IMG/VR virus record: IMGVR_UViG_3300027744_000008 | Length of the DNA stretch: 64,000 nucleotides | Source of the DNA: a virus | Lineage: Duplodnaviria > Heunggongvirae > Uroviricota > Caudoviricetes | Reading direction: 5' to 3' (one strand) | Shown here: piece by piece, positions 26,433 to 55,167 of the stretch | How positions within the stretch are numbered: the stretch's first letter is position 1 | How the letters are laid out: every line of letters starts with the position of its first letter | Notes under the pieces: generated by a model | Told to the model about the DNA's origin: nothing | The model's database searches: none | What the model saw: the letters and a program-made list of their open reading frames with translations, nothing else | Made by a program: the position numbers and the translations under genes

Positions 26433-26501
26433 CTAGTCGCTCCATAATAATACGCTAATATTATTTAAAGCGACTGGAGTTTAGATAATGTTAGTGGTTA
26501 A

Positions 26502-27056
26502 TTAAATGAATGGTATCCACAGCCAGATGCCTTGGCTCAACAGCACTGTGCCAACCACAGCAACCACTTCGCTGATACGGTACATGGTGTTGTTCACACT
26601 CAAAATACTGGCACTCAACAGCACAATGGCCAGTTGAAATGCCAATGACGCAAATGTCAACCATGGTGTGTGGCGTGTGGCTTCATCACGTGCGGCTTCG
26701 TAGGCCTGTGCTTTTTGCAACAGTTCACGCTTGCCTTCCGCCTTCACAGGGTCTGATTCGTAGCGAGCAATCTTGGCTACAAGTGCTGCTTTACGCTGGG
26801 GATCACGTGTTTCTTCTAACTGTCCTTCAGCAATACTTTGCTTGATGCTCTTGCTTTGATAGAACGCATAGGTGTCTGTGGCCTTCAACATGTTCTTCAG
26901 CACAGCACCTGAGTAACTGTTTGAAAAGTATGTGGTCACAGCCATGAACAAGGCCATGATCACAATCACAAGTCCGGCTTTGTCTTTAATTGCTGCTTCA
27001 CGTTCACTACGTGACAAGGGTTTTGTTTCTACTTCAGCCATTTTTAGCTCCTTCAA
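26502..27056 (-). CDS. membrane protein
   Basis: ORF track; two hydrophobic segments. Confidence 0.45.
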   Translation of the reverse strand: MKELKMAEVETKPLSRSEREAAIKDKAGLVIVIMALFMAVTTYFSNSYSGAVLKNMLKATDTYAFYQSKSIKQSIAEGQLEETRDPQRKAALVAKIARYESDPVKAEGKRELLQKAQAYEAARDEATRHTPWLTFASLAFQLAIVLLSASILSVNNTMYRISEVVAVVGTVLLSQGIWLWIPFI

Positions 27057-27596: not shown

Positions 27597-27704
27597 TATG
27601 CCTAGCCCACGTAGGGTCAGTCAGATTTTAAAAGGCAAAAAGCCTCCAAAGCCAAAGACAGTTAAGACTATGGCTAAACGAGTAGTTAGACGAAAGTCTA
27701 AATA
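27597..27704 (+). CDS. tiny Arg/Lys-rich peptide (35 aa)
   Basis: RBS aaaggaaataaatt; MPSPRRVSQILKGKKPPKPKTVKTMAKRVVRRKSK. Confidence 0.3.
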
Positions 27705-28045
27705 AGAAATTGTTGTAATTCCTTCAAAGTGAAGGCATTCTGGACGCGGGTTCGACTCCCGCCAGGTCCACCATTAAGTATACTCTATCCGCAAGGAGAC
27801 AAGTGGGTTCATCCATGTAGTGTACTTAATAATGGGCCTGCCATGGCTTCGACAGGGTGAGATAATAGAGACGGCAACACGGTAGGCGATGACCGTTAAT
27901 CAAGCAAAAACCGTAAATGCAACCGCAAATACATTCAAGTTTTGGCAAGCACCAGTTAGCATCGCTGCTAACGACGAGTTTGCACTAGCAGCCTAAGAAA
28001 CTGCACTTGCGAGGTAGGAAAGACCTTGTCATCCAACACACCAAA
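27705..28045 (+). ncRNA. ssrA: two-piece (circularly permuted) tmRNA: acceptor piece ending ...GGUUCGACUCCCGCCAGGUCCACCA (about 27705-27773), coding piece from GGGCCUGCCAUGGCUUCGACAGGG (27834) with tag reading frame ...AANDEFALAA-stop
   Basis: tRNA-like T-arm plus CCA precedes the 5' acceptor strand (gggcctg pairs caggtcc); gct gct aac gac gag ttt gca cta gca gcc taa = AANDEFALAA; gene closed by a terminator. Confidence 0.75.
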
Positions 28046-28072
28046 AAGGTTGCTTCGGCAACCTTTTTTCTT
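28046..28072 (+). terminator. rho-independent terminator (aaggttgc-ttcg-gcaacctt + U-run)
   Basis: seen directly after tmRNA. Confidence 0.7.
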
Positions 28073-28114
28073 TATAATACACACATCACAACACAACAAA
28101 CACGAAAGAAATAG

Positions 28115-41935: not shown

Positions 41936-42598
41936 TGTTGCAAAAATGCCACATTATCACAAGGTTCTTGACAGAAGATATAAATACTCATATAATAGAG
42001 ACATATTGTTAGTTAGAGGCCGGTGCAAAACTAATTTTACCAAAAAGTAAAAAAACAGTTGACAGCACAGTCAGAAGACTATACAATAGAGGCATACGTT
42101 AGAGATAACGTAGTTTTTAAGGAAAAAGAAAGCAAATGAAAAACAGTACGAAACATTCACAGCTAATACTAGCCAAACAAGGCGGCTTTATGCCCTCTTA
42201 TTGGTCAGCGATTAGTAATAATGATCGTACACCAGAGATTTGCCCAGGGTCCATGGAGGACAGGATTAGGTAACATACTTACTACTCCAAACTTCAAAGG
42301 ACCCTAGGATTAAAAACCCTGGGGTTTTTTGTTTTCGACGCTGAGATTGTCAAGGCAATCGTTGAAGCAAAGTGTGAAAAGGTGGTAACGAGGACCACGC
42401 TGGGCACTTTAAACATCTAGCAAACGGGCGGCCTGTAGGATGAAACTCTTCTTCTAGAGCGAAAAATTACAGCGTATTAAAGCATACTTCCCCTCTAGAC
42501 AACAAACGCTGGAGACTTTGTTAGTATGCTTTAATACACACTCTCCACGTTGCTGACTTTGACTCAGTGAACACGCATAGCGGGAGAGTGTCTTATTT

Positions 42599-42685
42599 GG
42601 ATGTGTGTGCCGAATGGTGAAGGCAGCTGACTGTAAATCAGTGACATAAGAAACGTTGGTGGTTCGAGTCCATCCGCATCCACCA
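42599..42685 (+). tRNA. tRNA-Tyr(GTA), type II, CCA encoded
   Basis: hand-folded: acceptor ggatgtg/cgcatcc, loop cuGUAaa, long variable arm. Confidence 0.75.
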
Positions 42686-42690
42686 AATTT

Positions 42691-42765
42691 GGTCCTGTCA
42701 TATAGTGGCTATTATACCGGCCTGTCTAGTCGGATATCGGGGTTCGATTCCCCGCAGGATCGCCA
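42691..42765 (+). tRNA. tRNA-Asp(GTC)
   Basis: acceptor ggtcctg/caggatc, loop cuGUCua, T-arm cgggg-ttcgatt-ccccg, disc G. Confidence 0.6.
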
Positions 42766-42769
42766 ATTA

Positions 42770-42844
42770 GGGGGATTCATATACTGGGTATTATGCCTGC
42801 CTTGCACGTAGGTCAAAAGAGTTCGATTCTCTTATCCTCCACCA
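42770..42844 (+). tRNA. tRNA-Ala(TGC) with G3:U70
   Basis: loop cuUGCac; G3-U70 identity pair present. Confidence 0.75.
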
Positions 42845-42917
42845 GTTTTAGGATAGCAACAGCAAACAAATCCAATTTCACTTTTAATGAAAAAAAGATG
42901 CTATCCTGTTTTATTAT

Positions 42918-42994
42918 GCGACCTTAGCTCAGTTGGATAGAGCACTTGCCTACGAAGTAAGGGGTCAGGAGTTCGAGTCTCTTAGGTCGCGCCA
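42918..42994 (+). tRNA. tRNA-Arg(ACG)
   Basis: loop cuACGaa; acceptor gcgacct/aggtcgc. Confidence 0.75.
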
Positions 42995-43001
42995 AATATA
43001 T

Positions 43002-43076
43002 TCCCTAGTAGCTCAGCGGTAGAGCAGCAGGCTGTTAACTTGTTGGTCCGTGGTTCGATCCCACGCTGGGGAGCCA
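43002..43076 (+). tRNA. tRNA-Asn(GTT), U1-A72 as in E. coli
   Basis: loop cuGUUaa. Confidence 0.7.
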
Positions 43077-43084
43077 ATTTATGT

Positions 43085-43159
43085 TGGGGTGTAGTGTAAT
43101 GGCTATCACAGCGGGCTTTGAACTCGCTAATCTTGGTTCGATTCCAAGCACCCCTACCA
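43085..43159 (+). tRNA. tRNA-Gln(TTG) with U1.U72 mismatch
   Basis: loop cuUUGaa; acceptor tggggtg vs cacccct. Confidence 0.6.
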
Positions 43160-43233
43160 GTTTTAGGTTAATTACAGCGATAAAAAATGGCTGTCTGCTA
43201 GGACGTTAAACTAGTATTAACCTGTTTTATTTT

Positions 43234-43308
43234 ACTCCGGTCGTCTAGTGGCTAGGACGCCAGCCTTTCAAGTTGGAGAAGCGGGATCGAAACCCGTTCG
43301 GAGTACCA
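43234..43308 (+). tRNA. tRNA-Glu(TTC) copy 1 (A1-U72)
   Basis: D/anticodon region cgtctagtggctaggacgccagccTTTCAAgttgg matches Glu family. Confidence 0.65.
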
Positions 43309-43315
43309 AGTTTAT

Positions 43316-43393
43316 ATAGCGGTGGCAGAGAGGCCCATTGCATCGGATTGCAAATCCGAAAAACCGTGAGTTCAAATCTCACCCGCTATTCCA
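43316..43393 (+). tRNA. tRNA-Cys(GCA), discriminator U73
   Basis: tcgga-ttGCAaa-tccga; U73 Cys identity. Confidence 0.65.
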
Positions 43394-43398
43394 AATTT

Positions 43399-43472
43399 GC
43401 CCTTTTAGTTAAATGGTATAACAACTGTTTTGTAATCAGTTATTGGCAGTTCGATTCTGTCATGGGGCACCA
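43399..43472 (+). tRNA. tRNA-Thr(TGT) copy 1 (U31.U39)
   Basis: actgt-tuUGUaa-tcagt resembles B. subtilis Thr-UGU arm. Confidence 0.65.
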
Positions 43473-43705
43473 AGTTTTGAGAGTGTCAGCAAGTGAAGTC
43501 ACGCTGTTTAGTATTCTTCGAAGGTACTGAGCAGTAAAAGGCAAATGGGTTCAACTCCCACCCGCGGGCAACTGCGGAGGTCCGTAATGGGGACTACGCT
43601 GGACGGATCCCAAGTGATATCCATCGTGCTCGAGGTCAGGCTAGGCGGCCGGTAAGTCCTGAATAAATCTACGATAAAAGCGGCGTAGGCTCTCAAATTC
43701 AATTT

Positions 43706-43780
43706 CCTCTTGTAGCTCAATGGTAGAGCACTCGCTTGATAAGCGATAGACCTAAGGTTCGATTCCTTTCGAGAGGACCA
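43706..43780 (+). tRNA. tRNA-Ile(GAT)
   Basis: loop uuGAUaa; acceptor cctcttg/cgagagg. Confidence 0.7.
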
Positions 43781-43937
43781 AGTTTCGAGTTAGACGTCAA
43801 CGTTGAGTCCCCATGGCATAGCACAATGCGGATTGTGTGACACACCAGTATGCTAATAGAGGTTGTTTAAACTCCGTTGCGCGAGACAATCTAGCGAGTC
43901 TTCCCAGGAGGATAGTTAGGCACTTGAAAATCTATTA

Positions 43938-44016
43938 CTGGGATTATTGTCAGTCAGGTCAGACGGCTCGCCTTGGAAGTGAGAGGTCGCAGGTTCGAAT
44001 CCTGCATCCCAGACCA
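43938..44016 (+). tRNA. tRNA-Pro-like (anticodon TGG; C1-G72, A73), irregular D-arm
   Basis: ctcgc-cuUGGaa-gtgag; 79 nt; 3 nt between acceptor and D-stem. Confidence 0.45.
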
Positions 44017-44030
44017 AAGACTTCTTTGGT

Positions 44031-44104
44031 GTGACTATGTTGTAATGGTAGCAACACAGATTGTGATTCTGTTAGCATGGGTTCGATCCCCATTAGTCAC
44101 CCCA
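44031..44104 (+). tRNA. tRNA-His(GTG), C73, no encoded G-1
   Basis: acaga-uuGUGau-tctgt; perfect acceptor gtgacta/tagtcac. Confidence 0.75.
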
Positions 44105-44114
44105 AAGAAGTTTT

Positions 44115-44192
44115 GCCCTTGTGGACAAATTGGTAAAGTCGCCTCTCTCAAAAGGAGTAGTTCTGTCTGTTCGAATCAGACCAAGGGTACCA
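44115..44192 (+). tRNA. atypical class-I tRNA with anticodon CAA (Leu codon UUG) but no long variable arm
   Basis: cctct-cuCAAaa-ggagt; variable region only 6 nt; good T-arm and acceptor. Confidence 0.45.
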
Positions 44193-44194
44193 AT

Positions 44195-44268
44195 GCTCTT
44201 ATAGTTAAATGGTAGAACACCTCTTTGGTATGGAGGTAATGGTAGTTCGATTCTACCTAAGAGCACCA
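44195..44268 (+). tRNA. tRNA-Thr(GGT)
   Basis: cctct-uuGGUau-ggagg. Confidence 0.75.
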
Positions 44269-44277
44269 AAAGTATAT

Positions 44278-44353
44278 GCCAAGATAGCTCAGTTGGTAGA
44301 GCACCGGTCTGAAGAATCGGGTGTGGTTGGTTCGATCCCAACTCTTGGTACCA
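44278..44353 (+). tRNA. tRNA-Phe(GAA)
   Basis: ccggt-cuGAAga-atcgg. Confidence 0.8.
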
Positions 44354-44527
44354 ATTTTAGGATGCGAACAGCAAATAAAAAAATTCAACTTGTAATTGAA
44401 AAATAAGCATCCTGTTTTTAAAATGTTCAAAAGGAGAACGACATGAAACGTGCTAAACGTTAGTGTCATCTTTAGATTCCATGTAGGTCTAGGGATGGCA
44501 CGTAAAAGAAAATCTAATACGTACTAT

Positions 44528-44602
44528 CCCTTCGAGGTGTTATGGTAGCATACTCGGCTCTTAACCGATGAGGTGACAGTTCGAATCTGTCTGGAGGGAC
44601 CA
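44528..44602 (+). tRNA. tRNA-Lys(CTT)
   Basis: ctcgg-cuCUUaa-ccgat; A73. Confidence 0.55.
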
Positions 44603-44608
44603 ATTCAT

Positions 44609-44684
44609 GGAAGCATAACTCAATGGCTAGAGTATCGGACTTTTAATCCGAGAGTTGTGGGTTCGAGTCCCACTGCTTCTACCA
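44609..44684 (+). tRNA. tRNA-Lys(TTT)
   Basis: tcgga-cuUUUaa-tccga. Confidence 0.8.
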
Positions 44685-44840
44685 TATAAAAACATACTGG
44701 TCTACCGCCACCGAGAGGTAGTTAAAGACAATGACAAGCAACAGCCAGTGTGTTTCTATATGGTGACTATATAAAAACACGCTCGCGGCTCCCGGGGTTG
44801 GGGGTACGTTGTACGACTACCCTAGAGTGTGTTTCTATAT

Positions 44841-44916
44841 GGTAACGTAGCATAGTGGCTAATGCACCACCTTCATACGGTGTCGATCGTCGGTTCGAGT
44901 CCGACCGTTACTACCA
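44841..44916 (+). tRNA. tRNA-Met/Ile2 (CAT) copy 1
   Basis: ccacc-uuCAUac-ggtgt. Confidence 0.6.
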
Positions 44917-45042
44917 AGTTTAGGATAGTAACAGCAAATTTAAAAACAACTACTCTTGAAAAGTGAAGGAACGGTTCGACTCCGTGGCCGCAAGGTTTGG
45001 TGTAACGGTAGCACTATGTTAAATTCTATCCTGTTTAATAAT

Positions 45043-45116
45043 GTCTCGGTGGTGTAATGGCAGCATGGCGGTCTCCAAAACCGTTCGTGGGGGTTCGAGT
45101 CCCTCCCGGGACGCCA
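45043..45116 (+). tRNA. tRNA-Trp(CCA), G73
   Basis: gcggt-cuCCAaa-accgt. Confidence 0.75.
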
Positions 45117-45122
45117 ATTAAT

Positions 45123-45210
45123 GGAAGTGTGTCTGAGTGGGTTAAGGTACCGCACTTGAAATGCGGCGTGTCGAAGGGCACCGTGGGTTCGAATCCTACC
45201 ACTTCCGCCA
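45123..45210 (+). tRNA. tRNA-Ser(TGA), type II
   Basis: ccgca-cuUGAaa-tgcgg; long variable arm; G73. Confidence 0.8.
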
Positions 45211-45215
45211 AGTTA

Positions 45216-45875
45216 TTACCAAATACTACTATTTGAATAATGATTGTCAACTACAATCTCAGGGATTGAAATCCATTCAGGTTGGCTAATCATCCATCTC
45301 ACAATGCTGGCAATTTCTTCGGGCTTGGTCCAGCAAACGCTAGAATTCCAATTGTAGTTTTTATAATGATCCGGATCAACTCTAAAAGGTGTCAAACTCC
45401 TGGCCAGCGGAGTATCCACTGCGCTGGGGCTGATGCACATGACCTTGACTGGTTTAGATCTACTGTTGCTTAATGCAACACTGGTCTCTTTGAGATGTTT
45501 CTTAGCAACCGCATAGGCAGTTCTGATAGAGTTTTCTCTAATGCCAGTTAGTCGTTCAGCACTTATGCTAGATACATTTATGATTTGCCCCGTGGGCATC
45601 TTATCATAAAATTTTAACAACAGATCAACGGATGCAGTACCAATCATGTGTAGTGTTTTGTATTTGTCAGAGAACAATGCCGCGGCGTTGTTGACAAACA
45701 AGTCAGGTGTATATTTTCCCACAAGATAGTTTCTAAATGCTTCATCTTGCAAATCACCTTGTTCAATGGCAGCATCACTTCTGCCAACTGTGATCACTTG
45801 ATACTCTGTACTTAGATCGTTGGCAATGGCTAAACCTATGCCTTTTGTTCCGCCCGTTACTAGTGCTATTTTCAT
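45216..45875 (-). CDS. short-chain dehydrogenase/reductase (SDR)
   Basis: VTGGTKGIGLAIA Rossmann, NNAA motif. Confidence 0.65.
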   Translation of the reverse strand: MKIALVTGGTKGIGLAIANDLSTEYQVITVGRSDAAIEQGDLQDEAFRNYLVGKYTPDLFVNNAAALFSDKYKTLHMIGTASVDLLLKFYDKMPTGQIINVSSISAERLTGIRENSIRTAYAVAKKHLKETSVALSNSRSKPVKVMCISPSAVDTPLARSLTPFRVDPDHYKNYNWNSSVCWTKPEEIASIVRWMISQPEWISIPEIVVDNHYSNSSIW

Positions 45876-47152
45876 ATGAGTGTGCTGGGTAAATCAAAAT
45901 AATAAAGTTTTTTTGTTTCATCTGGTTGATCGTCGAAGAATGTATATTGACTAGATTCTTTGATTTTTTCAAGCATACCTAGTTTAAAATTTACATTATC
46001 CCACACATAAAAAAGATATAGATCGTTATCAAAAGTAACATCATGTGGAACATGACTACCGGAAAAAACTAGTATACCAGATCTAGCAGTAATCTTAAAT
46101 TCATTGGGTCGTTGATGATCAGTATAAGAGCTTCTTAGTAGAGCAGGATTGCTGTAATAATTTGCTAAGTTGGGATCATCATCCGGTATTGGATTCCAGA
46201 ATCGATAGTCAATCCCACTGTCATTAAAAGTTAAACGAATAATTATAGTTAGTGTAAGTCTATTCTGCTCTGTAACACGATGTGTATGAACCAACAAAGA
46301 TTCATCTAGGCTTTTGTGACCCATCAGTACAGAAGCATGATCGCAATCGTCTATATAAGTTTCTGCAAGATCTTCTGCATCTTTATTCAACTTCATAAAT
46401 TTTTTATAGATATAGGGGTGTCGATCGATAGCGAACTGCATAGCATGATCAAACGTATGCATCAGTAACGAAATGGGAATTTTTCCTTTAGAGACAGTCA
46501 GGTCATGAGGTCTACGCACAATGTTACTGGTTCTTTCTTTGAGAAATCGACATCCAGTTAAACTAGGATCACTGGGTTTACACCATACACCTTCTCCATC
46601 ATAGCTAATCATGTGCCCAATGGGTATTATGTTTTTAACTACCCAGTCTAGATGATAAGGAATAAGTGTCCAGGAGATTAGTTGATTTTTTGGAGGATAA
46701 TGAGTATATGGAAACTCGCTATGATACCCATCATCGGATGTGTAACGACTAAATTTAGTTCCCACGGTGGCGTGTGCATTACTAAAACTAAGTATCAATT
46801 CATCATACTTGTCTCTATTTTTAGATGCCCATTTATCATATTCTTCTTTAGACCAAAATATAACACGCAATTCAGATCGAAGACCACCATCGGAATAATG
46901 CGGCTCAATATTAACCACTGCATCGGAACTGAGCAATAATTTATACAGATTAAAAATAGCTGTTTCATTTTGAGGATGCTCGTTAACTGATGCTATTTCT
47001 AGTACATTATAAACTGTGTAATAATTTTGTTGCATTTCTGTATCCATACTATTTAATTTTTCGTACAAAAGGTTTTGATAGCCCAAATAGCTGCCTATCT
47101 TTATTCCATACTTGTCCGGGCGGCAGACCAATCCTACTTCTTTTAATATCAA
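45872..47152 (-). CDS. Asp/Asn beta-hydroxylase (AspH/LpxO-like) family protein, long form
   Basis: HTHRVTEQNRLTLTIIIRL parallels HRHTGPENRTGEYIRIHIPL of neighbouring paralog. Confidence 0.45.
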   Translation of the reverse strand: MILKEVGLVCRPDKYGIKIGSYLGYQNLLYEKLNSMDTEMQQNYYTVYNVLEIASVNEHPQNETAIFNLYKLLLSSDAVVNIEPHYSDGGLRSELRVIFWSKEEYDKWASKNRDKYDELILSFSNAHATVGTKFSRYTSDDGYHSEFPYTHYPPKNQLISWTLIPYHLDWVVKNIIPIGHMISYDGEGVWCKPSDPSLTGCRFLKERTSNIVRRPHDLTVSKGKIPISLLMHTFDHAMQFAIDRHPYIYKKFMKLNKDAEDLAETYIDDCDHASVLMGHKSLDESLLVHTHRVTEQNRLTLTIIIRLTFNDSGIDYRFWNPIPDDDPNLANYYSNPALLRSSYTDHQRPNEFKITARSGILVFSGSHVPHDVTFDNDLYLFYVWDNVNFKLGMLEKIKESSQYTFFDDQPDETKKLYYFDLPSTLI

Positions 47153-47882
47153 TTAAAAATATCAATCGGTGACCGTTAGACAGATTGTGAGCACTATGTA
47201 CCAATTGATTATCAAAGGCAAATATATCACTCCAATTGATTTCTTCTCCGTCTACTTCAAAGAATAAATCACCGGGGGGAACAATTAATGGAATGTGAAT
47301 TCTAATATATTCTCCAGTCCTGTTTTCAGGACCAGTATGTCTGTGCAATACAGTATTTGGAGCCAAGTAACTATAACTGGCTATGGGACAATCGTTCCAA
47401 AATTCTTTAACTAGTCGATATGCCGTGGGGAAATTCTTTTCAGCATATTTGGGATCTATATCCCAATGTAGATCTGACGAAGGATCGTGATATTTAAATT
47501 CAACATTTTTCCATCCGTTGGGGTTGGCAAACGATTCGTTGTTATCATCTAGTGTAGTCCGCAGGATTTCAGTTACAACATCGGGAAACCGTGTTCCATT
47601 TGGATCCGGAGTTGGTACAAGATATCCGCCACGCTCAGAACTTTTTTGCATGACATTACGAGCTTTAACATTTATCGCTTCTTCAAGCGACTGACCTCTT
47701 AAGAATTCGTCTATTAGAGCCTGTCTAAAGCTCATTAGATATTCGGCAACTTCTAGAAACTCATGCCTTCTATAAATTGGTTGAGGATGTGTATCTTTTT
47801 CTGGATCGTAATTGGAGTCAATTTCTCCAAAGATATGACTATGCATTTGGTGCAAGAATGAGTGGAAGGCATGTTCTTTCAT
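47049..47882 (-). CDS. aspartyl/asparaginyl beta-hydroxylase family (LpxO-like) 2OG oxygenase
   Basis: VLHRHTGPENRTGEYIRIHIPLIVP...FEVDGEEINW...LVHSAHNLSNGHRLIFLIDI matches Asp_Arg_Hydrox core. Confidence 0.6.
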   Translation of the reverse strand: MKEHAFHSFLHQMHSHIFGEIDSNYDPEKDTHPQPIYRRHEFLEVAEYLMSFRQALIDEFLRGQSLEEAINVKARNVMQKSSERGGYLVPTPDPNGTRFPDVVTEILRTTLDDNNESFANPNGWKNVEFKYHDPSSDLHWDIDPKYAEKNFPTAYRLVKEFWNDCPIASYSYLAPNTVLHRHTGPENRTGEYIRIHIPLIVPPGDLFFEVDGEEINWSDIFAFDNQLVHSAHNLSNGHRLIFLIDIKRSRIGLPPGQVWNKDRQLFGLSKPFVRKIK

Positions 47883-47961
47883 TTTCAGGTTCCGTTATAC
47901 TATTTATTTTAAGATACTATTAGAGATAATTAATATTAGCAGTTTAAATTAAAGGACCAGC

Positions 47962-48369
47962 ATGTACGCATTTAAACATCGATATTATCACTCAGACGGT
48001 CATCCACTAGCAAGATTAGTACTTTCTTATGAAAATGAATTTGTAGAATTAATGCGGAAATGTTTCACTATTCAGGGCCTTAAACCTAAAATAAAAATTT
48101 TTAAAAGTCCTGATTATACATGGAACGAAATGTTATGGAGTTGGGACACCAAAGAAATATATCAACAATGGGTAGTAGTTGCAGGTGCAGACTGGCAACC
48201 AGCATTAGTTATCGGTTTACAATATAGTGATAGTGTAGGAGTAACACAAGTACGCGGGCAAGCTGATTGTGAGATAATGCCCACTGACGGGATGATAGAA
48301 ATAACTATGGACAAAGCAATACTAGATTACAAAACCAGTCATTTTATATTGTCTGAATCCACTAAGTAA
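47962..48369 (+). CDS. hypothetical protein
   Basis: ORF track. Confidence 0.4.
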   Translation: MYAFKHRYYHSDGHPLARLVLSYENEFVELMRKCFTIQGLKPKIKIFKSPDYTWNEMLWSWDTKEIYQQWVVVAGADWQPALVIGLQYSDSVGVTQVRGQADCEIMPTDGMIEITMDKAILDYKTSHFILSESTK

Positions 48370-48941
48370 TCTTTTAAAATTAGTTTAGCATTATTCATAG
48401 TAATAAAATTATTGTTTAAATCTTCTAATACCATTGATAACGATCTTCTTTTTCCGCTGAGTGTGACTACCGCATGTGGTACCCCAACTTGAATTAGACT
48501 AGGGAATTCAATTTTAGTTGAATAAATTTCATCCATTTGTTCTAATGTAAATGTTGTATAATTTCTAATAGAATTACTGGGTGTACGATCATTGATAGCA
48601 TAATTATAATCTAAGGGCATATTTGATTTAGGCAAGTACCAAGCTATTTTGTGATCATCACCCCACATCCAAATTAATTTGGACATATCACCTATACCGA
48701 GACAATCTGAATGAATCCCCCCATTGGTAATTGTTCCCCCATTGGGATTATAACAGTTAGGATATTCCTCATAGAAACTGGAAATTTTACTAATTTTTAT
48801 TCCCTTACTAAAGAAAAAATCTAGTAAGTCTGTCTTAATTAAATTTACTGGAATTAAGTTCCAAAAATCAGTTGATAATTCTTCTATTGGCATAATCAAC
48901 GGGTCAACATTAAGAGTTGTGTTGAAATGTAAATCAATCAT
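48339..48941 (-). CDS. 2OG-Fe(II) oxygenase-like protein (paralog family A)
   Basis: C-terminal GVPHAVVTLSGKRRSLSMVL similar to 53196 gene GAPHTVINSSNKNRWCVSIVL. Confidence 0.45.
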   Translation of the reverse strand: MIDLHFNTTLNVDPLIMPIEELSTDFWNLIPVNLIKTDLLDFFFSKGIKISKISSFYEEYPNCYNPNGGTITNGGIHSDCLGIGDMSKLIWMWGDDHKIAWYLPKSNMPLDYNYAINDRTPSNSIRNYTTFTLEQMDEIYSTKIEFPSLIQVGVPHAVVTLSGKRRSLSMVLEDLNNNFITMNNAKLILKDYLVDSDNIK

Positions 48942-49020
48942 TTTTAGGTTCCTCTAGATTATTTATTTTACAATAAGATTAGAGATAATTAATGTTAGCA
49001 GTTTAAATTAAAGGTAATAT

Positions 49021-49242
49021 ATGAACGGTAGAACATCGCAGGCAGCAGTAGAAATGGTGGGCAATAGATTTGATCTTATATTAATTTCCAGTCTGAGGGC
49101 CAGGGAATTACGTGCAGGCTATCCATCAAAATTAGCCAAGACCAATGGACCCATTATAACTGCATTAAATGAAATTGAGCAAGGGCTTGTTGGTAGAGAA
49201 TATCTAAAGAAAATTAAAGGTAAAACACGCTACGATAGGTAG
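49021..49242 (+). CDS. rpoZ: DNA-directed RNA polymerase omega subunit homolog
   Basis: AVEMVGNRFDLILISSLRARELRAG matches RpoZ signature ([21 protein letters not shown]). Confidence 0.7.
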   Translation: MNGRTSQAAVEMVGNRFDLILISSLRARELRAGYPSKLAKTNGPIITALNEIEQGLVGREYLKKIKGKTRYDR

Positions 49243-49251
49243 TTGGATTTT

Positions 49252-49345
49252 CCCTCTGTAGTTTAATGGTAAAACACCTGTTTTATACACAGCATCGTCG
49301 CCAGATTAGCGAGCGTTCTAGGTTCGAATCCTAGCAGAGGGACCA
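49252..49345 (+). tRNA. atypical tRNA: C1-G72/A73, anticodon loop uuUAUac (TAT) and about 24-nt variable region
   Basis: acceptor ccctctg/cagaggg, D gttt-aatggta-aaac, T ctagg-ttcgaat-cctag; identity uncertain. Confidence 0.45.
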
Positions 49346-49347
49346 TT

Positions 49348-50184
49348 TTGCTGATAAATACCAGTATGGACAAAAAAATAATTAACAAAATTAGAGAAAG
49401 TATTTTATCCGATAATGGCTACAACAAAGAATTTTCAACATCTGGGTCATTTCAAGGTCTACAACTTCCCCAGGAATATATAGACCGTATGACAGCACTA
49501 GGTGAGAAATATCAAGATATCAAGTGGTTGCCTTTAGACATACCAAAAATAGAAATCCCCGATATTGAAGAATTTAAAGCACTATGGGAAGAAGAATCTA
49601 TTGATACCCTTCGAACAAAAGTAGATGCGGCAGAACCCTGGCCCAAAGAGGATCACCCCAGGGGCATGGCTAGTAGTTGGCATGTGCCTTCGTTCAAAGG
49701 ACTGCATTTATACCAACATGAAATGTCCCCATTAGAGGATCATTCATGGACTGGCAAAGTCTACAAGGGCAACAACAAACAGCTAAAAAGAATTTTAGAA
49801 CAAGCATTTGAATATTTTCCAATACATACTTTTACTTCTATATTCATATGGCAAAGTGTTGAGGAAATTTATCCTCATCAGGATCAAGGAGCATTTTGGA
49901 AATGTCCCACTGAATTTCGGTGTATGTTACACGATGAAAATCCCGAGCCTACTCTGTATGTTGTAGACATTGAACGCGGAGACACAACCTACATAGATCT
50001 TCCAAAAGATACAAATAGTTTTTGTTGGAGTAACGGTACACAGCTACACGGCAGCGACTACAAGGGAAAGAAAAAATTTCTACTTGCTGTAGCCGGTGTT
50101 CAACATTCAGTCAAGTGCGAGGAATTGTTCGAACGCAGTATTGAAAAATATAAAGATCAACTCAATTATAAATTAGACTTGTAA
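49348..50184 (+). CDS. 2OG-Fe(II) oxygenase superfamily protein
   Basis: YPHQDQG (HxD) ... TQLHGS; starts right after tRNA. Confidence 0.45.
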   Translation: MLINTSMDKKIINKIRESILSDNGYNKEFSTSGSFQGLQLPQEYIDRMTALGEKYQDIKWLPLDIPKIEIPDIEEFKALWEEESIDTLRTKVDAAEPWPKEDHPRGMASSWHVPSFKGLHLYQHEMSPLEDHSWTGKVYKGNNKQLKRILEQAFEYFPIHTFTSIFIWQSVEEIYPHQDQGAFWKCPTEFRCMLHDENPEPTLYVVDIERGDTTYIDLPKDTNSFCWSNGTQLHGSDYKGKKKFLLAVAGVQHSVKCEELFERSIEKYKDQLNYKLDL

Positions 50185-50229
50185 TTCAGTTTTAAATCTA
50201 ATATTTCTACTCCGACAATAAGTAATTTT

Positions 50230-51105
50230 ATGAAAATAAAACCACTGAATAATTGCGGAGTAGAAATATTAGATTTGGATATTTCTACATTGTCCACGAC
50301 AGATTACGCAGAAATAAAAGATATCTTTTTAAACAACTTGATTGTAGTATTAAAAAATCAACCATTAAAAGTTGTTCCGTATGCTGGTCTAATCGAAGGC
50401 ATAGGAAAAATTGCCAATTGGGATCAAAGTGTATGGCGAATGGACGGATCTGTACTCTACGATGATTATAAGGGCTGTTACGTTGACCCATTTAACTATG
50501 TTGGTGCAGATGAAGACTTTCCTGTACAACGAGTAACCGGCAAAAAGATCAAAGGAGATCCAACAGGCATCTTTGGAGAAGGCAAACTTGATTGGCACAG
50601 TAACATGAACGGTCCTTTCAATAGGGCACGGGGTGTTGCACTACAAGGTGTATCGGAAGCCTGTGTTGGTACTAGTACTAGTTGGATGGATACTACATTG
50701 GCCTATGCTGCCATGAGTGACGAGTTAAAAACTCGTTGTCAAAACGTTGTTGGTAGATATGAATATGCTCCTGAAATATGGGCTGAAGGATTGCCCAAGT
50801 TTCAATATGATCTTATGTTAAAGAACAAAGAAGAATTCTATAACATGCCCTTGATAAATTTAAGTGACAAGGGCAAGCCCGGATTATATTTCCACTACAA
50901 CAATAAATGTACATTCCCTAGCGATCCAACATTATTAGAAGCTCTAAAAGAACACTGCTTTAAACCAGAATTTATATACACTCATGTTTGGGAGATAGGG
51001 GACATTGTGCTAAGTGATCAAGTATTAACCCTACACAAGCGAGATCAAGATGATCCTGCTATTCTAGCAGAACGTGTGCTACATAGATACACATTCCATT
51101 ATTAG
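50230..51105 (+). CDS. TauD/TfdA-like 2OG-dependent dioxygenase
   Basis: GKLDWHSNMNG (WH.D-like), C-terminal Arg; size 291 aa. Confidence 0.4.
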   Translation: MKIKPLNNCGVEILDLDISTLSTTDYAEIKDIFLNNLIVVLKNQPLKVVPYAGLIEGIGKIANWDQSVWRMDGSVLYDDYKGCYVDPFNYVGADEDFPVQRVTGKKIKGDPTGIFGEGKLDWHSNMNGPFNRARGVALQGVSEACVGTSTSWMDTTLAYAAMSDELKTRCQNVVGRYEYAPEIWAEGLPKFQYDLMLKNKEEFYNMPLINLSDKGKPGLYFHYNNKCTFPSDPTLLEALKEHCFKPEFIYTHVWEIGDIVLSDQVLTLHKRDQDDPAILAERVLHRYTFHY

Positions 51106-51421
51106 GACTTTAGTTTAATGGCAGAACATTACCGTGACATGGTAAAGATAATAGTTCAATTCTATTAAGTCCTACCAGAGAACAAGATAAGTACATTCAC
51201 AAAGAGAACCATATGAAACTACCATCAACCTTTAAATTATCAAAAGCAACCAAGCGTCGACTAGCAACTATACTTGACCCTCATCTACGAGGTGTCATCC
51301 GCAGAAGTTTAGCGCAGGCAGAATATGTTGCAAACCAAAAAGTCAAAACTTCTAAAGGCAGAGACGAGTAAGATTCATGCATCGATGATAGAATTGGTAA
51401 TACCAATTCTTAGGAAAAGAG

Positions 51422-51994
51422 TTGAATACATTATATCAATCTATCCACTTAGATACATTTAACTTGTTACAAGATTATACTGCTTCCGTCATGAAGGCAT
51501 ATGATCAAGAAAACATGCATGTTATCTATGTTGCTTTACCAAGTGATATACTAGAGAAATTTAACAGTGAGTTAAATTCCTTTGGATTGCCCAATCTTCG
51601 ATATGCCTACGCATTTAAAAGAAGATTGCACTTTACACCGGTCCACACAAATACACACATAGACTATGATATTACAAGTGATGCCATAGTAAACTGTTCA
51701 ATTGTGATCCCCGTCGAAGGATGCGAAAATACTAAAATGTTTTGGTTTGACGGTGAACGTGAAGAAACTATAATAAAAATGGAAGATGGCAATTCTTACG
51801 TAGACTTAAAATGGCTCGGGAGTGTTAAAAAATTAGATCAAATTGAGATCTACGATAGCCCGATGTTAGTAAATACTACGGTTCCGCACAGTGCTACCAG
51901 TAGCCGTGATAAGAGCTATAGAACAGTACTTACTGTACGACTCGAAGGAAACCCTAGTTTTAACGAAGTAAAAAGCAAATTTATGCGGGATTAG
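51422..51994 (+). CDS. hypothetical protein; stop codon lies inside tRNA-Gly 5' end
   Basis: ORF track. Confidence 0.4.
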   Translation: MNTLYQSIHLDTFNLLQDYTASVMKAYDQENMHVIYVALPSDILEKFNSELNSFGLPNLRYAYAFKRRLHFTPVHTNTHIDYDITSDAIVNCSIVIPVEGCENTKMFWFDGEREETIIKMEDGNSYVDLKWLGSVKKLDQIEIYDSPMLVNTTVPHSATSSRDKSYRTVLTVRLEGNPSFNEVKSKFMRD

Positions 51995-52059
51995 CTCAGT
52001 GGTAGAGCGAAACGTTGCCAACGTTTAGGTCATCGGTTCGACCCCGATATCCCGCTCCA
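51985..52059 (+). tRNA. tRNA-Gly(GCC), U73
   Basis: aaacg-uuGCCaa-cgttt; acceptor gcgggat/atcccgc. Confidence 0.8.
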
Positions 52060-52105
52060 AATATACAAAAATTTTGGTAAATAGTTATACTAGGAGGAGA
52101 CAACC

Positions 52106-52765
52106 ATGCTAGAAACTATGTCAGAACACAGCCATATTACCAAGGCTATCCACCGCAGTCAACACTGCCAACGCAACTGGGATCTAACTAAAGAAGTTCC
52201 AGAAGAAGATTTACAACTGCTGATCACTGCGGCTACACAATGCCCAAGTAAGCAGAACATTGCTTTCTATAAAGCACATTTTATTACAAATCGTGACATT
52301 ATTGAATCAGTACACGCAAACACAGTGGGATTTGGACGAAGCATGGATCCTACGGATCTAACAACAAACAGTCAAACATTGGCTAATTTACTTGTTGTTT
52401 TTGAAGACAACGATTTTACCAAGATGCTGGCCGAAGACACAGTCGTTAGATCAGCTGAAACTCAAGCATGGCTTGAAAGTGGTAAAACAGCAGACGAATG
52501 GGTACGTGATAGAGACATGGCCATTGGTATTGCCGCAGGTTATTTAAATCTAACAGCCAGCCTAATGGGTTATGGCACAGGTTGCTGTGCTTGTTTCGAC
52601 GGCATTGCTATCAAAGAACTACTGGGGCTGTCAGACACACCGGTATTGTTAATGGGCATTGGATTCAAGAATCCGTTGATGAATCGTAGAGTTCATCACA
52701 AAGAACATGATTTTGCTTTCCCAACTAAACCAAAACAACCTATACCAACAACAGTGTTACGTTAA
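52106..52765 (+). CDS. nitroreductase-family flavoprotein
   Basis: AIHRSQHCQRNWD...EDLQLLITAATQCPSKQN matches nitroreductase N-terminal consensus; RBS taggaggagac. Confidence 0.55.
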   Translation: MLETMSEHSHITKAIHRSQHCQRNWDLTKEVPEEDLQLLITAATQCPSKQNIAFYKAHFITNRDIIESVHANTVGFGRSMDPTDLTTNSQTLANLLVVFEDNDFTKMLAEDTVVRSAETQAWLESGKTADEWVRDRDMAIGIAAGYLNLTASLMGYGTGCCACFDGIAIKELLGLSDTPVLLMGIGFKNPLMNRRVHHKEHDFAFPTKPKQPIPTTVLR

Positions 52766-52770
52766 TCATA

Positions 52771-52797
52771 CAGGGCCCGCAGAGGCCCTGTTTTATT
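52771..52797 (+). terminator. rho-independent terminator (cagggcc-cgcaga-ggccctg + U-run)
   Basis: seen in sequence. Confidence 0.65.
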
Positions 52798-52830
52798 AGC
52801 ATAGCGCATTAAGGCAATAAATATGAGATC

Positions 52831-53196
52831 ATGATATTTCGAACTATTGCTACCTTTGAAAAACTAGAAACCAACATAGTAGATATACTGTGGAATAATC
52901 CCCATTACAGTCAACTATCAACATGCTATTTGTTTGAGGGTAATCCTTATTCTGTTATTGATCATAAATTATCAGAGGACAACTCCTACATAGAAATTTA
53001 CGTTGACTACCATACCGAACAATTTTATAGGATGTGGTATGAGGAGTTTAAAGACCAGTATGTTCCGTTGATTAAATTATCAGTTGACTCTCTTAAAGAA
53101 CAGGGAGTAGAAATTCATCATTACTTTGATCCTATAGATCTTTCGGGCTTACCAAAAAATCGCCAACTGATAACATCATTTGAGAGTAGATTCTAA
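52831..53196 (+). CDS. hypothetical protein
   Basis: ORF track. Confidence 0.4.
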   Translation: MIFRTIATFEKLETNIVDILWNNPHYSQLSTCYLFEGNPYSVIDHKLSEDNSYIEIYVDYHTEQFYRMWYEEFKDQYVPLIKLSVDSLKEQGVEIHHYFDPIDLSGLPKNRQLITSFESRF

Positions 53197-53765
53197 TGAA
53201 AGTTTATCAACATCTTGATCTAAACATTGGCTCCAGCATACTAGCGGATATAAGTATTTTGCACAAGGGCATAAAAGACCCCAATTTGGAACTCAGCTGG
53301 CATTGGGATTTAGAGTTATCAGACCTAAATCCCAAGTTCTTGGCCTTATTGAAAAGCAAGGATCTGCGTGTGATAAGCGCACAAGTTTTTAAAACTAATT
53401 TTTTTCATCCAATTTGGCCTATACATGTTGACACCGGAGTCGTTGGAGATTTTCCTAAGATGAATTGGGTCTACGGTAATCAAGAATGTCCAATGATTTG
53501 GTACAAAGAAAAAGATCCAACACATGTCAAAGTAGAAGAAATAACAGCTACTGGTGATACCTATTACATAATTGATCCCGACAGTGCGGAAGAGATGGCC
53601 AGAACATTTGTTAGAACTCCCACAATAGTACAAGCAGGTGCTCCACACACAGTTATAAATTCTAGTAATAAAAATCGTTGGTGCGTGAGTATAGTGTTAA
53701 AGAAGGGAGACGACTCGTTGACCTTTGACCAATTGGTCACTGAATTTAAAGACTACGCAGTATAA
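53196..53765 (+). CDS. 2OG-Fe(II) oxygenase-like protein (paralog family A)
   Basis: IHVDTG ... GAPHTVINSSNKNRWCVSIVL. Confidence 0.45.
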   Translation: MKVYQHLDLNIGSSILADISILHKGIKDPNLELSWHWDLELSDLNPKFLALLKSKDLRVISAQVFKTNFFHPIWPIHVDTGVVGDFPKMNWVYGNQECPMIWYKEKDPTHVKVEEITATGDTYYIIDPDSAEEMARTFVRTPTIVQAGAPHTVINSSNKNRWCVSIVLKKGDDSLTFDQLVTEFKDYAV

Positions 53766-53840
53766 CGGTCCTTGGTGAAATGGATATCATGCTTGTCTTC
53801 GAAACAAGCGGTGGGAGTTCGATCCTCTCAGGACCGACCA
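53766..53840 (+). tRNA. tRNA-Arg(TCG)
   Basis: cttgt-cuUCGaa-acaag; acceptor cggtcct/aggaccg. Confidence 0.7.
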
Positions 53841-53845
53841 AACAC

Positions 53846-53898
53846 GTTGTAAAAATACAACACTAAAGGTTGACACCCTGGTCAACAGAGTATATAAT
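53846..53898 (+). promoter_or_regulatory. hairpin gttgtaaaaatacaac followed by TTGACA-17-TATAAT promoter (module repeated at 61115)
   Basis: identical 16-nt hairpin at 61115..61130, each followed within about 10 nt by consensus -35/-10. Confidence 0.5.
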
Positions 53899-53945
53899 AA
53901 GTGCATAAGTTAAGAAATTAACTAAATGTTCTTTAAAAATTAATT

Positions 53946-54021
53946 GTCCCGTTCATCTAGAGGCCTAGGATACCGCCCTTTCACGGCGATCACACCAGTT
54001 CGAATCTGGTACGGGACGCCA
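53946..54021 (+). tRNA. tRNA-Glu(TTC) copy 2, G73
   Basis: ccgcc-cuUUCac-ggcga; acceptor gtcccgt/acgggac. Confidence 0.75.
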
Positions 54022-54173
54022 TTTGTTAGTAGCATAGCTCGTCGGCTAATGTACACAGCTAACCTTGTTTGGATCGGAGTCCTGTGATACTAGTAATTGA
54101 TTACCATAGGTAATTAACATCAGGCAGAGAAGAATAGTAAACTGTGCTACTAACAAATGGTAAGTAATAGAAA

Positions 54174-54257
54174 GCCCCGGTGATGTAATGGTAGCCATGC
54201 GAGTCTTAGAAGCTCGTGTCGAAAGGCGTGTCGGTTCGAGTCCGACCTGGGGCACCA
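54174..54257 (+). tRNA. tRNA-Leu(TAG), type II
   Basis: cgagt-cuUAGaa-gctcg; long variable arm. Confidence 0.75.
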
Positions 54258-54262
54258 ATATT

Positions 54263-54356
54263 GGAGAGTTGGGTGAGCGGCTTAAACCATCTTCCTGCTA
54301 AGAAGACGTACGGGCATAAACCTGTACCGAGGGTTCAAATCCCTCACTCTCCGCCA
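54263..54356 (+). tRNA. tRNA-Ser(GCT), type II
   Basis: tcttc-cuGCUaa-gaaga; long variable arm; G73. Confidence 0.8.
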
Positions 54357-54404
54357 AATTGTTTGATAAGTAATCAACGCTGGTAAGTAGTGCGTAATAA
54401 ATTT

Positions 54405-54478
54405 GCCCTTTTAGTTAAATGGTATAACAACTGTGTTGTAATCAGTTATTGGCAGTTCGATTCTGTCATGGGGCACCA
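54405..54478 (+). tRNA. tRNA-Thr(TGT) copy 2 (anticodon-loop variant of 43399 copy)
   Basis: identical to copy 1 except loop guUGUaa vs uuUGUaa. Confidence 0.65.
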
Positions 54479-54612
54479 TTAATTTTATTAAAATATACTT
54501 TCGTCTACATAGCCCAAACCCGGGGGAGCCTCGACAACGTCAAAGGAAATGTGTATAACACACGGTACAACAAGCATAAGACACTTGTTGGGAGTATATT
54601 TTAATAAAGTGT

Positions 54613-54686
54613 GCGGGGTTGGCATAGTGGTTGTGTTCTAGCCTTCCAAGCTAGCTAGAGGAGTTCGAATCTCCTACCCCGCTCCA
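54613..54686 (+). tRNA. tRNA-Gly(TCC), U73
   Basis: ctagc-cuUCCaa-gctag. Confidence 0.8.
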
Positions 54687-54693
54687 AATTTAT

Positions 54694-54939
54694 ATGATAG
54701 AATATATTATAACATTTTTTGCCTTGTTCTTTACAGATGTGTTTTACACATTCTACCTAAGAGCAGTGGCTAATGATCGTGCCATGGCCGCTAGTGCCTG
54801 GGCAGTTGTCGTGTACATTATTGCCAGTGTAGCAGTTATAAACTACACCACGGATCATTGGTCACTTATACCCGCAGGACTAGGTGCATTTTGTGGCACA
54901 TATGTTGGAATGAAAGTTAGAAAGAAATACGGTGTGTAG
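54694..54939 (+). CDS. small membrane protein embedded in tRNA array; stop codon inside tRNA-Pro 5' end
   Basis: ORF track; three hydrophobic helices. Confidence 0.4.
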   Translation: MIEYIITFFALFFTDVFYTFYLRAVANDRAMAASAWAVVVYIIASVAVINYTTDHWSLIPAGLGAFCGTYVGMKVRKKYGV

Positions 54940-55006
54940 CTCAGCCTGGTAGAGCTCTGCGTTTGGGACGCAGTGGTCGCATGTTCGAATCGTGTCACAC
55001 CGACCA
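54930..55006 (+). tRNA. tRNA-Pro(TGG), C1-G72, A73
   Basis: ctgcg-uuUGGga-cgcag. Confidence 0.8.
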
Positions 55007-55167
55007 AAGACAGCGGATAAGTTACATTATCCAGTATGAGTCGCTAAGGTAGCTAGCTAACCCTTAGGGCAGGTAATAGTACTAAGAGGGATGTAACAGG
55101 TGAGCAGTGATCTGCTTCAACGGGGATACCTCAAAAATGTTCTCCACCAATTAACAAAGGAATATAA

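Follow-up and report, generated by a model that had tools for sequence, protein, structure and literature searches.

The window analysed here, a 64-kb stretch of a Caudoviricetes genome held as IMG/VR record IMGVR_UViG_3300027744_000008, carries eight copies of a stem-bracketed sequence element, all on the + strand: five lie in a first array of tRNA genes (tRNA array 1), and three stand in tandem just upstream of the open reading frame (ORF) 56255-57664, whose product is predicted to be a Ro60-like ring protein. We show here that these elements are genes of one modular structured-RNA family whose helix is kept by selection on the RNA, and that they recur beside Ro-like genes in distantly related phages, and we weigh the probable reading of their products as Y-RNA-like partners of the Ro-like protein.

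Elements at the locus

Every copy is bounded by the same arrangement, here called the handle, in which a terminal 7-9 bp helix of free sequence (P1) is followed after exactly 3 nt by CAGCAA and closed by its 3' complement. By direct reading, the helix is perfect in 8/8 copies and CAGC(A/G)A starts exactly 10 nt past the first paired base in all of them. The handle brackets a variable module, which is an anticodon-arm-like hairpin (P2) in the compact class of 53-59 nt (E1, E2, E3, E7), a circularly permuted tRNA-like fold in the 111-nt E4, and a larger fold in the class of 166-245 nt (E5, E6, E8). A composite pattern (AGG+N4, 1-4 nt, CAGCRA, and the perfect reverse complement of the first 7 nt 25-420 nt downstream) matches seven times in the window, always on the + strand, against 0.06 matches per shuffle and at most 1 in 300 Markov shuffles of the window; E8, the eighth copy, has a different helix and lies outside these seven. 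The copies and their context are given below, with bit scores from R1, a covariance model trained on the window's clade alone, which on the window with filters off returns the known copies only.

41968-41996 and 42059-42087, + strand: promoter-like sites ahead of tRNA array 1, strong by consensus scan
42599-45210, + strand: tRNA array 1, 20 tRNA genes, the transcript context of E1, E2, E8, E3 and E4
42850-42907, + strand: E1, compact, 58 nt; P1 42850-42858/42899-42907; CAGCAA 42860-42865; R1 76.4 bits
42876-42892, + strand: P2 hairpin of E1, loop CUUUUAA
43165-43223, + strand: E2, compact, 59 nt; P1 AGGTTAAT/ATTAACC T; motif variant CAGCGA; R1 43.5 bits
43477-43696, + strand: E8, large, 220 nt; P1 TTGAGAG 43477-43483/CTCTCAA 43690-43696, then TGT and CAGCAA 43487-43492
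44359-44413, + strand: E3, compact, 55 nt; P1 AGGATGC/GCATCCT; P2 TTCAA-CUUGUAA-TTGAA; R1 76.9 bits
44922-45032, + strand: E4, medium, 111 nt; handle, hairpin (loop CUUGAAA), T arm, GNRA-capped acceptor-like hairpin, D arm, handle
55690-55718, + strand: sigma-70-like promoter TTTACA-17-TATAAT by consensus match (11/12), upstream of E5-E6-E7 and the Ro-like gene
55757-55922, + strand: E5, large, 166 nt; P1 AGGATCG/CGATCCT
55932-56176, + strand: E6, large, 245 nt; P1 AGGATGA/TCATCCT
56189-56241, + strand: E7, compact, 53 nt; P1 AGGTTAT/ATAACCT; R1 39.8 bits
56255-57664, + strand: gene for the predicted Ro60-like ring protein, 469 amino acids; Pfam DUF2828 (helical repeats) and DUF7788 (von Willebrand factor A, vWA)

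E1-E4 start with AGG(A/T)T, a variable helix part and CAGC(A/G)A, and end with the exact complement followed by GTTT. These are the four copies that a preliminary description of the sequence had picked out, and reading confirms each of them in place; the AGGAT start that it gave to all four is right for most, E2 reading AGGTT, and its count of at least four, sound for those four, had missed E5, E6, E7 and E8. Spacers in tRNA array 1 are mostly 5-10 nt long, and the copies within it start 5 nt past a CCA end and stop 9-10 nt short of the next tRNA. E5-E7 lie 14-498 nt upstream of the Ro-like gene, the 3' end of E7 touching its Shine-Dalgarno sequence GAAAGGA (56242-56248), and E1-E4 and E8 are 11-13 kb away. 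Right past E3, inside the tRNA array, an AAGGAG Shine-Dalgarno sequence precedes a six-codon ORF (MKRAKR, stop; 44437-44463, + strand).

Selection acts on the RNA

Related viral contigs, gathered by neighbouring protein (L001-L080) or by the 5' motif (L081 onward), hold 390 elements, 308 of them distinct, with at least 26 different helix sequences. A perfect 7-mer complement closes 390/486 of the 5' motifs in these contigs, as against 17/486 for a control 7-mer, and in the 129 loci that bear the gene every element (270/270) is on the strand of the Ro-like gene, most at no more than 900 nt upstream. P1 covariation in sets selected by scanning arises partly by construction. We also assembled a set blind to the RNA, consisting of the 78 nt before the start codon in 72 protein-selected loci (49 distinct sequences). 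An E7-type element abuts the Shine-Dalgarno sequence in about 47 of these 49 distinct upstream regions, and all 336/336 P1 cells are paired, with double-sided changes at 4/7 pairs, representing few independent events, and zero single-sided ones.

The inner hairpin P2, which was not a criterion of any search, covaries strongly among 120 compact elements: one pair is UA in 44, AU in 29, CG in 16 and UG in 10, and the next is AU in 26, GC in 24, CG in 20 and UA in 12. Compensation extends to the large class, where E8 orthologues in the related contigs carry TTGTAAG/CTTACAA as their terminal helix, and the inner helices of E5 orthologues change in step (CACAG/CTGTG versus CTCAG/CTGAG, for example). 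The unbiased supports are the motif-closure control, P2 covariation and the protein-selected set, together with the covariance-model transfer and the half-pattern natural control described below. A relaxed version of the handle scan, tolerant of G-U pairs and of one mismatch in the motif, produced 380 matches, most of them spurious, and was discarded.

Because the strand bias is strict, the changes are compensatory and CAGCAA stands on one side only, what is conserved is a helix at the RNA level and not a DNA repeat, and the elements are genes of one modular structured-RNA family. The preliminary description had argued for such a helix from its four copies and had listed a small-RNA family among its candidates, and the same three observations bear out both; the covariation it proposed to look for is present in P1 and P2 of related sequences, and related contigs hold 390 of the elements.

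Modules that mimic parts of tRNA

In the compact class, 78/117 distinct sequences form a 5-bp hairpin with a 7-nt loop, and 50 of these 78 loops read CT-NNN-AA (CTTTTAA 13, CTTGTAA 9, CTTCTAA 8, CTGTAAA 4, and others), mostly the loops of Lys-UUU, Thr-UGU, Arg-UCU, Tyr-GUA and Ser tRNAs. C32-U33 together with A37-A38 is the signature of tRNA anticodon loops. Within the window, the P2 loop of E1 is identical to the anticodon loop of tRNA-Lys(UUU), and the hairpin loop of E4 is the same as that of tRNA-Ser(UGA). The further tRNA-like domain, composed of T arm, acceptor-like stem-loop and D arm, is absent from the compact copies E1, E2, E3 and E7.

Medium elements are ordered 5' to 3' as handle, anticodon-like or V hairpin, variable loop, T arm, acceptor-like hairpin (4-7 bp, with a 4-5 nt closing loop), D arm and handle. 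A T arm, taken as a 4-bp stem with a TTYRANN loop, is present in 64/89 medium sequences, against 1/89 of their reverse complements and 0/89 shuffles, and RNAalifold on 25 medium sequences, E4 among them, finds the terminal helix again together with a T arm of 5 bp and a D arm of 4 bp, with double changes (T-stem pairs 11-13, D-stem pairs 9-10). In E4 the arms read ACGG TTCGACT CCGT (T), GGCC GCAA GGTT (acceptor-like) and GGTG TAACGGTAG CACT (D). The medium module is a closed, circularly permuted cloverleaf, and because it has no CCA end and its acceptor stem is closed, medium elements are not functional tRNAs; genuine permuted tRNA genes were considered and rejected, given the missing CCA and an acceptor loop of merely 4-5 nt. 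No element is called as a canonical cloverleaf by ARAGORN or by Rfam RF00005, the arm order being permuted and the acceptor end closed. In the large class, the interior of E8 holds a T-arm-like GGGTTCAACTCCC.

The neighbouring gene encodes a predicted Ro60-like protein

The only Pfam matches of ORF 56255-57664 are DUF2828 and DUF7788, and the TROVE family (PF05731) does not match it even at E up to 10. With 138 diverse relatives as input, AlphaFold2 predicts its structure at a predicted local distance difference test score (pLDDT) of 93.9 and a predicted template modelling score of 0.92; an earlier input of 24 near-identical sequences had given pLDDT 46, and the prediction was redone with the 138 representatives. 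In a Foldseek search of the PDB with this model, the top eight matches are all Ro60/Rsr structures (1yvr, 2i91, 1yvp, 2nvo, 9nfa, 9nep) at E 3e-7 to 9e-6, with template modelling scores up to 0.66 over about 540 columns, and the next are lone vWA domains at E > 0.01. A sequence profile likewise ranks TROVE/Ro60 chains first among solved sequences, weakly (E 0.034-0.6) and through the segment of the MIDAS (metal-ion-dependent adhesion site), where the DxSxS motif of the ORF aligns with the MIDAS of phiRo60. The modelled protein thus has the Ro60 fold, a helical-repeat ring plus a vWA domain with a MIDAS site.

Homologues have been named independently as Ro60/Rsr-like in phage Bas63 (gp130; PMC11482910) and in a Listeria phage (CKA15_055; PMC12282133), and mycobacteriophage homologues carry the label "Ro-like RNA binding protein". 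Both recent papers guessed at Y RNAs for these proteins but left them undefined and could not name them (PMC11482910, PMC12282133).

The RNA-protein pair recurs across phages

By tblastn, Ro-like homologues are found in 711 cultured-phage records at 25-50% identity. We examined about 5 kb on each side of the gene in cultured phages and found the handle beside it, on the same strand and in non-coding gaps, in 10 of the 11 lineages examined. The loci are as follows.

Synechococcus phage BUCT-ZZ01: three tandem elements, upstream of the gene
KVP40 (Vibrio): one element, after tRNA-Ser
Felix O1-like SP116 (Salmonella): three or four elements in a tRNA array beginning right past the gene
Listeria cka17/CKA15: three in tandem, upstream, behind a TTGACA-17-TATCAT consensus promoter
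Mycobacterium phage Kingsolomon: three in tandem, downstream, the middle one with a T arm
Campylobacter F360: two elements, upstream
Staphylococcus S-CoN_Ph1: three elements, downstream
Enterococcus VRE9_1: four elements
Sinorhizobium phiM12: two or three elements
The window's own freshwater jumbo-phage clade: the eleventh lineage, handle beside the gene

Helices are lineage-specific (AGGAT.., AGACCNN, TGGACNN, AAGANNC, AGCGGCN, ATGGTAC and others), while the 3-nt spacer and CAGCAA are constant, and 26/27 of the helices listed across lineages are pure Watson-Crick 7-mers. R1 detects elements on which it was not trained in six cultured phages, as the preliminary description had envisaged for a covariance model of its copies: in BUCT-ZZ01 (54 bits, E 5e-10), Kingsolomon (5e-8), F360 (4e-6), cka17 (5e-6 and 5e-4), S-CoN_Ph1 (3e-5) and VRE9_1 (1e-4). 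A natural control comes from an IMG/VR scan with a Felix-type 5' half-pattern, which returned 120 loci: in the 110 where the half-pattern is unclosed, 0/110 have a Ro-like gene, whereas nine of the ten closed loci have one, and the contig of the tenth carries the gene on its other piece. Megablast of tRNA array 1 against cultured phages yields tRNA-sized matches only.

Several of these loci hold further tRNA-like or partial forms. In SP116 (L201 6425-6505) the 5' half of a handle leads into a hairpin, a T arm, an acceptor 3' strand and then CCA, but there is no closing strand, and in other Felix-like contigs the orthologue of this half-element is closed, at 126 nt. In KVP40 (L200 3965-3983) a handle 5' half, CGACATT TTA CAGCAA, stands right before the Ro-like start codon with no closing strand nearby and may be an operator-like half-site. 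In BUCT-ZZ01 (L199 5590-5830) the Ro-like gene is closely followed downstream by two tRNA-like genes with a common insert of about 45 nt (AAAACGCATTCTGTAAAGAATGAATTCTGCAATC...); the match to the Rfam tRNA model is 114 nt long at this place, and the inserts may be tRNA introns.

Probable Y-RNA-like partners of the Ro-like protein

We consider it likely that the elements are genes of small, stable ncRNAs (noncoding RNAs) of Y-RNA or YrlA type that dock on the phage Ro60-like protein, a reading in which expression, binding, biogenesis and role are what we infer. By analogy with the terminal stem and 5'-side motif through which Y RNAs engage Ro60, the handle would be the docking site of the ring protein, CAGCAA being an analogue of the Ro-binding motif by position, and the inner module would tether or decoy tRNA-directed factors. 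Copies in the array would be cotranscribed with the tRNAs from host-type promoters (the sites at 41968 and 42059) and freed as by-products by the RNase P cut at the next tRNA and by trimming of the trailer. E5-E7 would be transcribed from their own promoter upstream of the Ro-like gene, and E7, touching the Shine-Dalgarno sequence, may also allow the protein to repress its own translation. The resulting ribonucleoprotein would act on tRNA-directed processes, whether repair, quality control or counter-defence, a role that would fit the kinase and metallophosphoesterase encoded nearby (below), the combination of Ro-like protein, Pnk and RNA ligase in LeBron-type phages (PMC13148394) and the action of Bas63 gp130 against the ppl defence system (PMC11482910).

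Several points weigh against this assignment. The canonical Ro-binding motifs, GGUCCGA of animals and GNCGAAN0-1G or CGAA of bacteria and phage, are absent from the elements; five of the eight window copies are 11-13 kb from the Ro-like gene; Aeh1 has no element within 5 kb of its Ro-like homologue; the single-sequence folding energies of E4-E6 are unremarkable (z -0.4 to -0.8); and the most abundant ncRNA reported for CKA15, at 26,236-26,727, is not one of the elements. That region is the most transcribed of the phage, with up to 67% of phage reads (PMC12282133). At L205 3237-3728 (minus strand) it bears no CAGCAA handle and matches nothing in Rfam, and is a separate large ncRNA near the same Ro-like gene. 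By elimination and from their consensus promoter, the three Listeria elements could be among the published "three highly transcribed regions", two of which lack published coordinates.

A more specific proposal, which we put forward tentatively and hold to be rather improbable, is that the Ro-like ring, once charged with these RNAs, serves as a device against host defence, working by tRNA mimicry. The compact and medium RNAs would then present close replicas of anticodon arms, acting as decoys, sponges or sentinels for the anticodon nucleases of the host and for other immunity directed at tRNA, and could also bring broken tRNAs to the neighbouring healing enzymes; such a device would explain both the siting among phage tRNAs and the fact that the homologue Bas63 gp130 counters a defence system.

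Among the alternatives to Y-RNA-like partners, the one that survives best, unlikely as we judge it, has the handle recognised by some other protein, such as an excising phage endoribonuclease, an RNA ligase or a repair enzyme, so that the linkage to the Ro-like gene merely marks a shared RNA-metabolism module. The missing canonical Ro-binding motif would be accounted for, and a kinase and a phosphoesterase do lie near the gene, as Pnk and ligase accompany the Ro-like protein in LeBron (PMC13148394); yet neither enzyme is adjacent in the Listeria, Campylobacter, Felix-like or Mycobacterium loci, the Ro-like gene is the only consistent neighbour across 10 lineages, and in about 47 of 49 distinct relatives its ribosome-binding site is touched by an E7-type element.

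Still less probable is that the elements punctuate polycistronic tRNA transcripts, as spacer hairpins that guide RNase P, E or III and are then degraded without a product. Five copies do fill tRNA spacers, with a 3' flank of GUUUU resembling tRNA trailers, but most spacers in the window, at 5-10 nt, need no such hairpin, tRNAs do not flank three of the window copies or most of those in Listeria, Staphylococcus, Campylobacter, Mycobacterium and Synechococcus phages, and the inner modules (anticodon-like loops, T and D arms) are maintained with compensation, something not required of a spacer that is thrown away. The processing and anti-termination hairpins that the preliminary description had entertained lose ground for the same reason, since copies outside tRNA arrays sit beside the Ro60-like gene, and further because some have a promoter to themselves, no copy was called in the terminator scan and a U tract is missing in other lineages; the mobile element it had also named is at odds with the placement of many copies beside that gene, the strand bias and the compensation.

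We give little credence to the elements being cis-acting operators in the 5' untranslated region that control translation of the Ro-like gene and do nothing more. E7 abuts the Shine-Dalgarno sequence, a placement kept in the protein-selected relatives, so that E7, and E7 alone, could plausibly have an operator function in addition; in Mycobacterium, Staphylococcus and Felix-like phages, however, the gene has its elements downstream, and five window copies belong to another transcription unit 11-13 kb off.

The weakest alternative, and a very remote one, is a DNA-level repeat, either a miniature inverted-repeat mobile element with target-site duplications or an intrinsic terminator, for which GTTTT on both sides of the inverted termini in the window and a U-rich 3' flank might speak, but which is largely refuted by strand bias and compensation, the termini varying yet staying complementary, the orientation always following transcription (7/7 in the window, 270/270 in relatives) and CAGCAA lying on one side only. 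Intrinsic terminators as such were rejected, as the scan called none, the loops are 40-230 nt long and no U tract follows the helix in other lineages; so were miniature inverted-repeat elements, in view of termini that vary with compensation, the single orientation and the asymmetric motif.

Other features of the window and significance

Two further genes near the Ro-like gene may bear on RNA metabolism by family.

57805-58344, + strand: P-loop kinase (AAA_33), adjoining the Ro-like gene
61894-62496, + strand: calcineurin-type metallophosphoesterase, by family match

Judged from their families, the two could possibly take part in RNA-end healing. No RNA ligase was found in the scanned parts of the window, and the remaining neighbours are genes of auxiliary-metabolism type.

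Other RNA features lie on the same strand. At 27661-28087 is a phage circularly permuted two-piece transfer-messenger RNA (tmRNA; Rfam tmRNA_permuted 135.6 bits, beta_tmRNA 121; ARAGORN tag ATANTFKFWQAPVSIAANDEFALAA). Within tRNA array 1, two spacers of 156-157 nt (43781-43937 and 44685-44840) have neither a handle nor an Rfam match, the second containing the direct repeat GTGTGTTTCTATATGGT. In tRNA array 2, long spacers at 54022-54173 and 54479-54612 are closed by 13-16 bp stems (TTTGTTAGTAGCA...TGCTACTAACAAA and TTTTATTAAAATATACT...AGTATATTTTAATAAA) without CAGCAA, and may be other stem-bracketed small RNAs. The stretch 55437-55512 is tRNA-like by eye, with a T arm CTTGG-TTCAAAT-CCAAG, a CAT anticodon-like loop and 3' ACCA, and is not called by ARAGORN or by the tRNA model of Rfam.

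At least 711 sequenced phages encode Ro60-like DUF2828 proteins, model and therapeutic ones (Felix O1-like/Bas63, KVP40, P100/A511, mycobacteriophage cluster L) among them. Of these proteins, CKA15_055 is packaged in virions, Bas63 gp130 counters a defence system and LeBron gp53 is toxic when overexpressed. The defined handle (helix, 3 nt, CAGCAA) is at once a searchable signature, by which many "hypothetical small ORFs" and empty spacers of tRNA arrays would become annotated RNA genes, and the modular payloads, mimics of anticodon arms and of permuted tRNAs, suggest that Ro biology is linked with the arms race centred on tRNA.

Comparison with known systems

At gathering thresholds, Rfam 15 matched only tRNA and tmRNA in the window, and at E up to 5 over 42000-56400 it gave nothing credible, chance matches (Dicty_Class_I, plastid UTRs (untranslated regions)) overlapping tRNAs; on six other phage loci it matched tRNAs only. 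The look-up in Rfam that the preliminary description suggested thus places no element in any family. We found no paper defining these RNAs, and a literature search on DUF2828 gave nothing relevant.

One known type for comparison is that of the circularly permuted tRNA genes of red algae, in which, as in E4-type elements, the T arm and acceptor 3' strand precede the acceptor 5' strand and D arm; E4-type acceptor ends differ in being closed by a 4-5 nt loop (GCAA, TTCAT) and lacking CCA, which makes them mimics. Metazoan Y RNAs (RF00019) share with the phage family a terminal stem serving as protein handle, a variable effector loop and a multicopy, modular organisation, but there is no similarity by sequence or covariance model, the motif is another one and the elements lack a La-type oligo-U end.

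Among phages, the Thermus phage phiLo encodes phiRo60, a true Ro60 that binds two upstream Y-like RNAs, which have a 5'-3' stem and CGAA, and also host PNPase (PMC12135203). These RNAs, Yrl1 and Yrl2 (NAR 2025, PMC12135203), differ from ours in their CGAA motif and their bona fide TROVE partner, and the phiLo system also differs in that binding and a ternary complex with PNPase were shown by experiment (PMC12135203), whereas for the elements described here binding is a proposal.

A further close comparison is with the bacterial Y RNAs of YrlA type (Chen et al. 2014, RNA 20:1715, PMC4201824), where the motif is GNCGAAN0-1G instead of CAGCAA at a fixed 10-nt offset, and the partner belongs to Pfam TROVE instead of DUF2828/DUF7788. 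Unlike YrlA, most elements have no tRNA-like domain, being limited to an anticodon-arm-like hairpin (53-65 nt) or built on far larger folds, many lie dispersed within tRNA arrays, and no Rfam model matches. The family probably resembles Y RNAs in type of function and, in its medium class, YrlA, yet falls outside the sequence definition, Rfam and Pfam TROVE. In the stem of Y RNAs it is chiefly the 5' strand that Ro60 contacts (PMC4201824). YrlA, like our elements, has paired ends with a short conserved motif near the 5' end, lies on the same strand as a nearby Ro60 homologue, often in several copies, and occurs in phages (PMC4201824); its order of V hairpin, T arm, acceptor-like stem-loop and D arm is that of the medium class (PMC4201824), and E5-E7, as is the rule for YrlA genes, share the strand of a Ro60 homologue and lie less than about 4 kb from it. 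The preliminary description held that nothing in the standard feature vocabulary explains the elements; with a terminal stem, a 5'-side motif, a tRNA-like module and a Ro60 homologue on the same strand, a gene which that description had not noticed, the concept of Y RNA and YrlA fits them.

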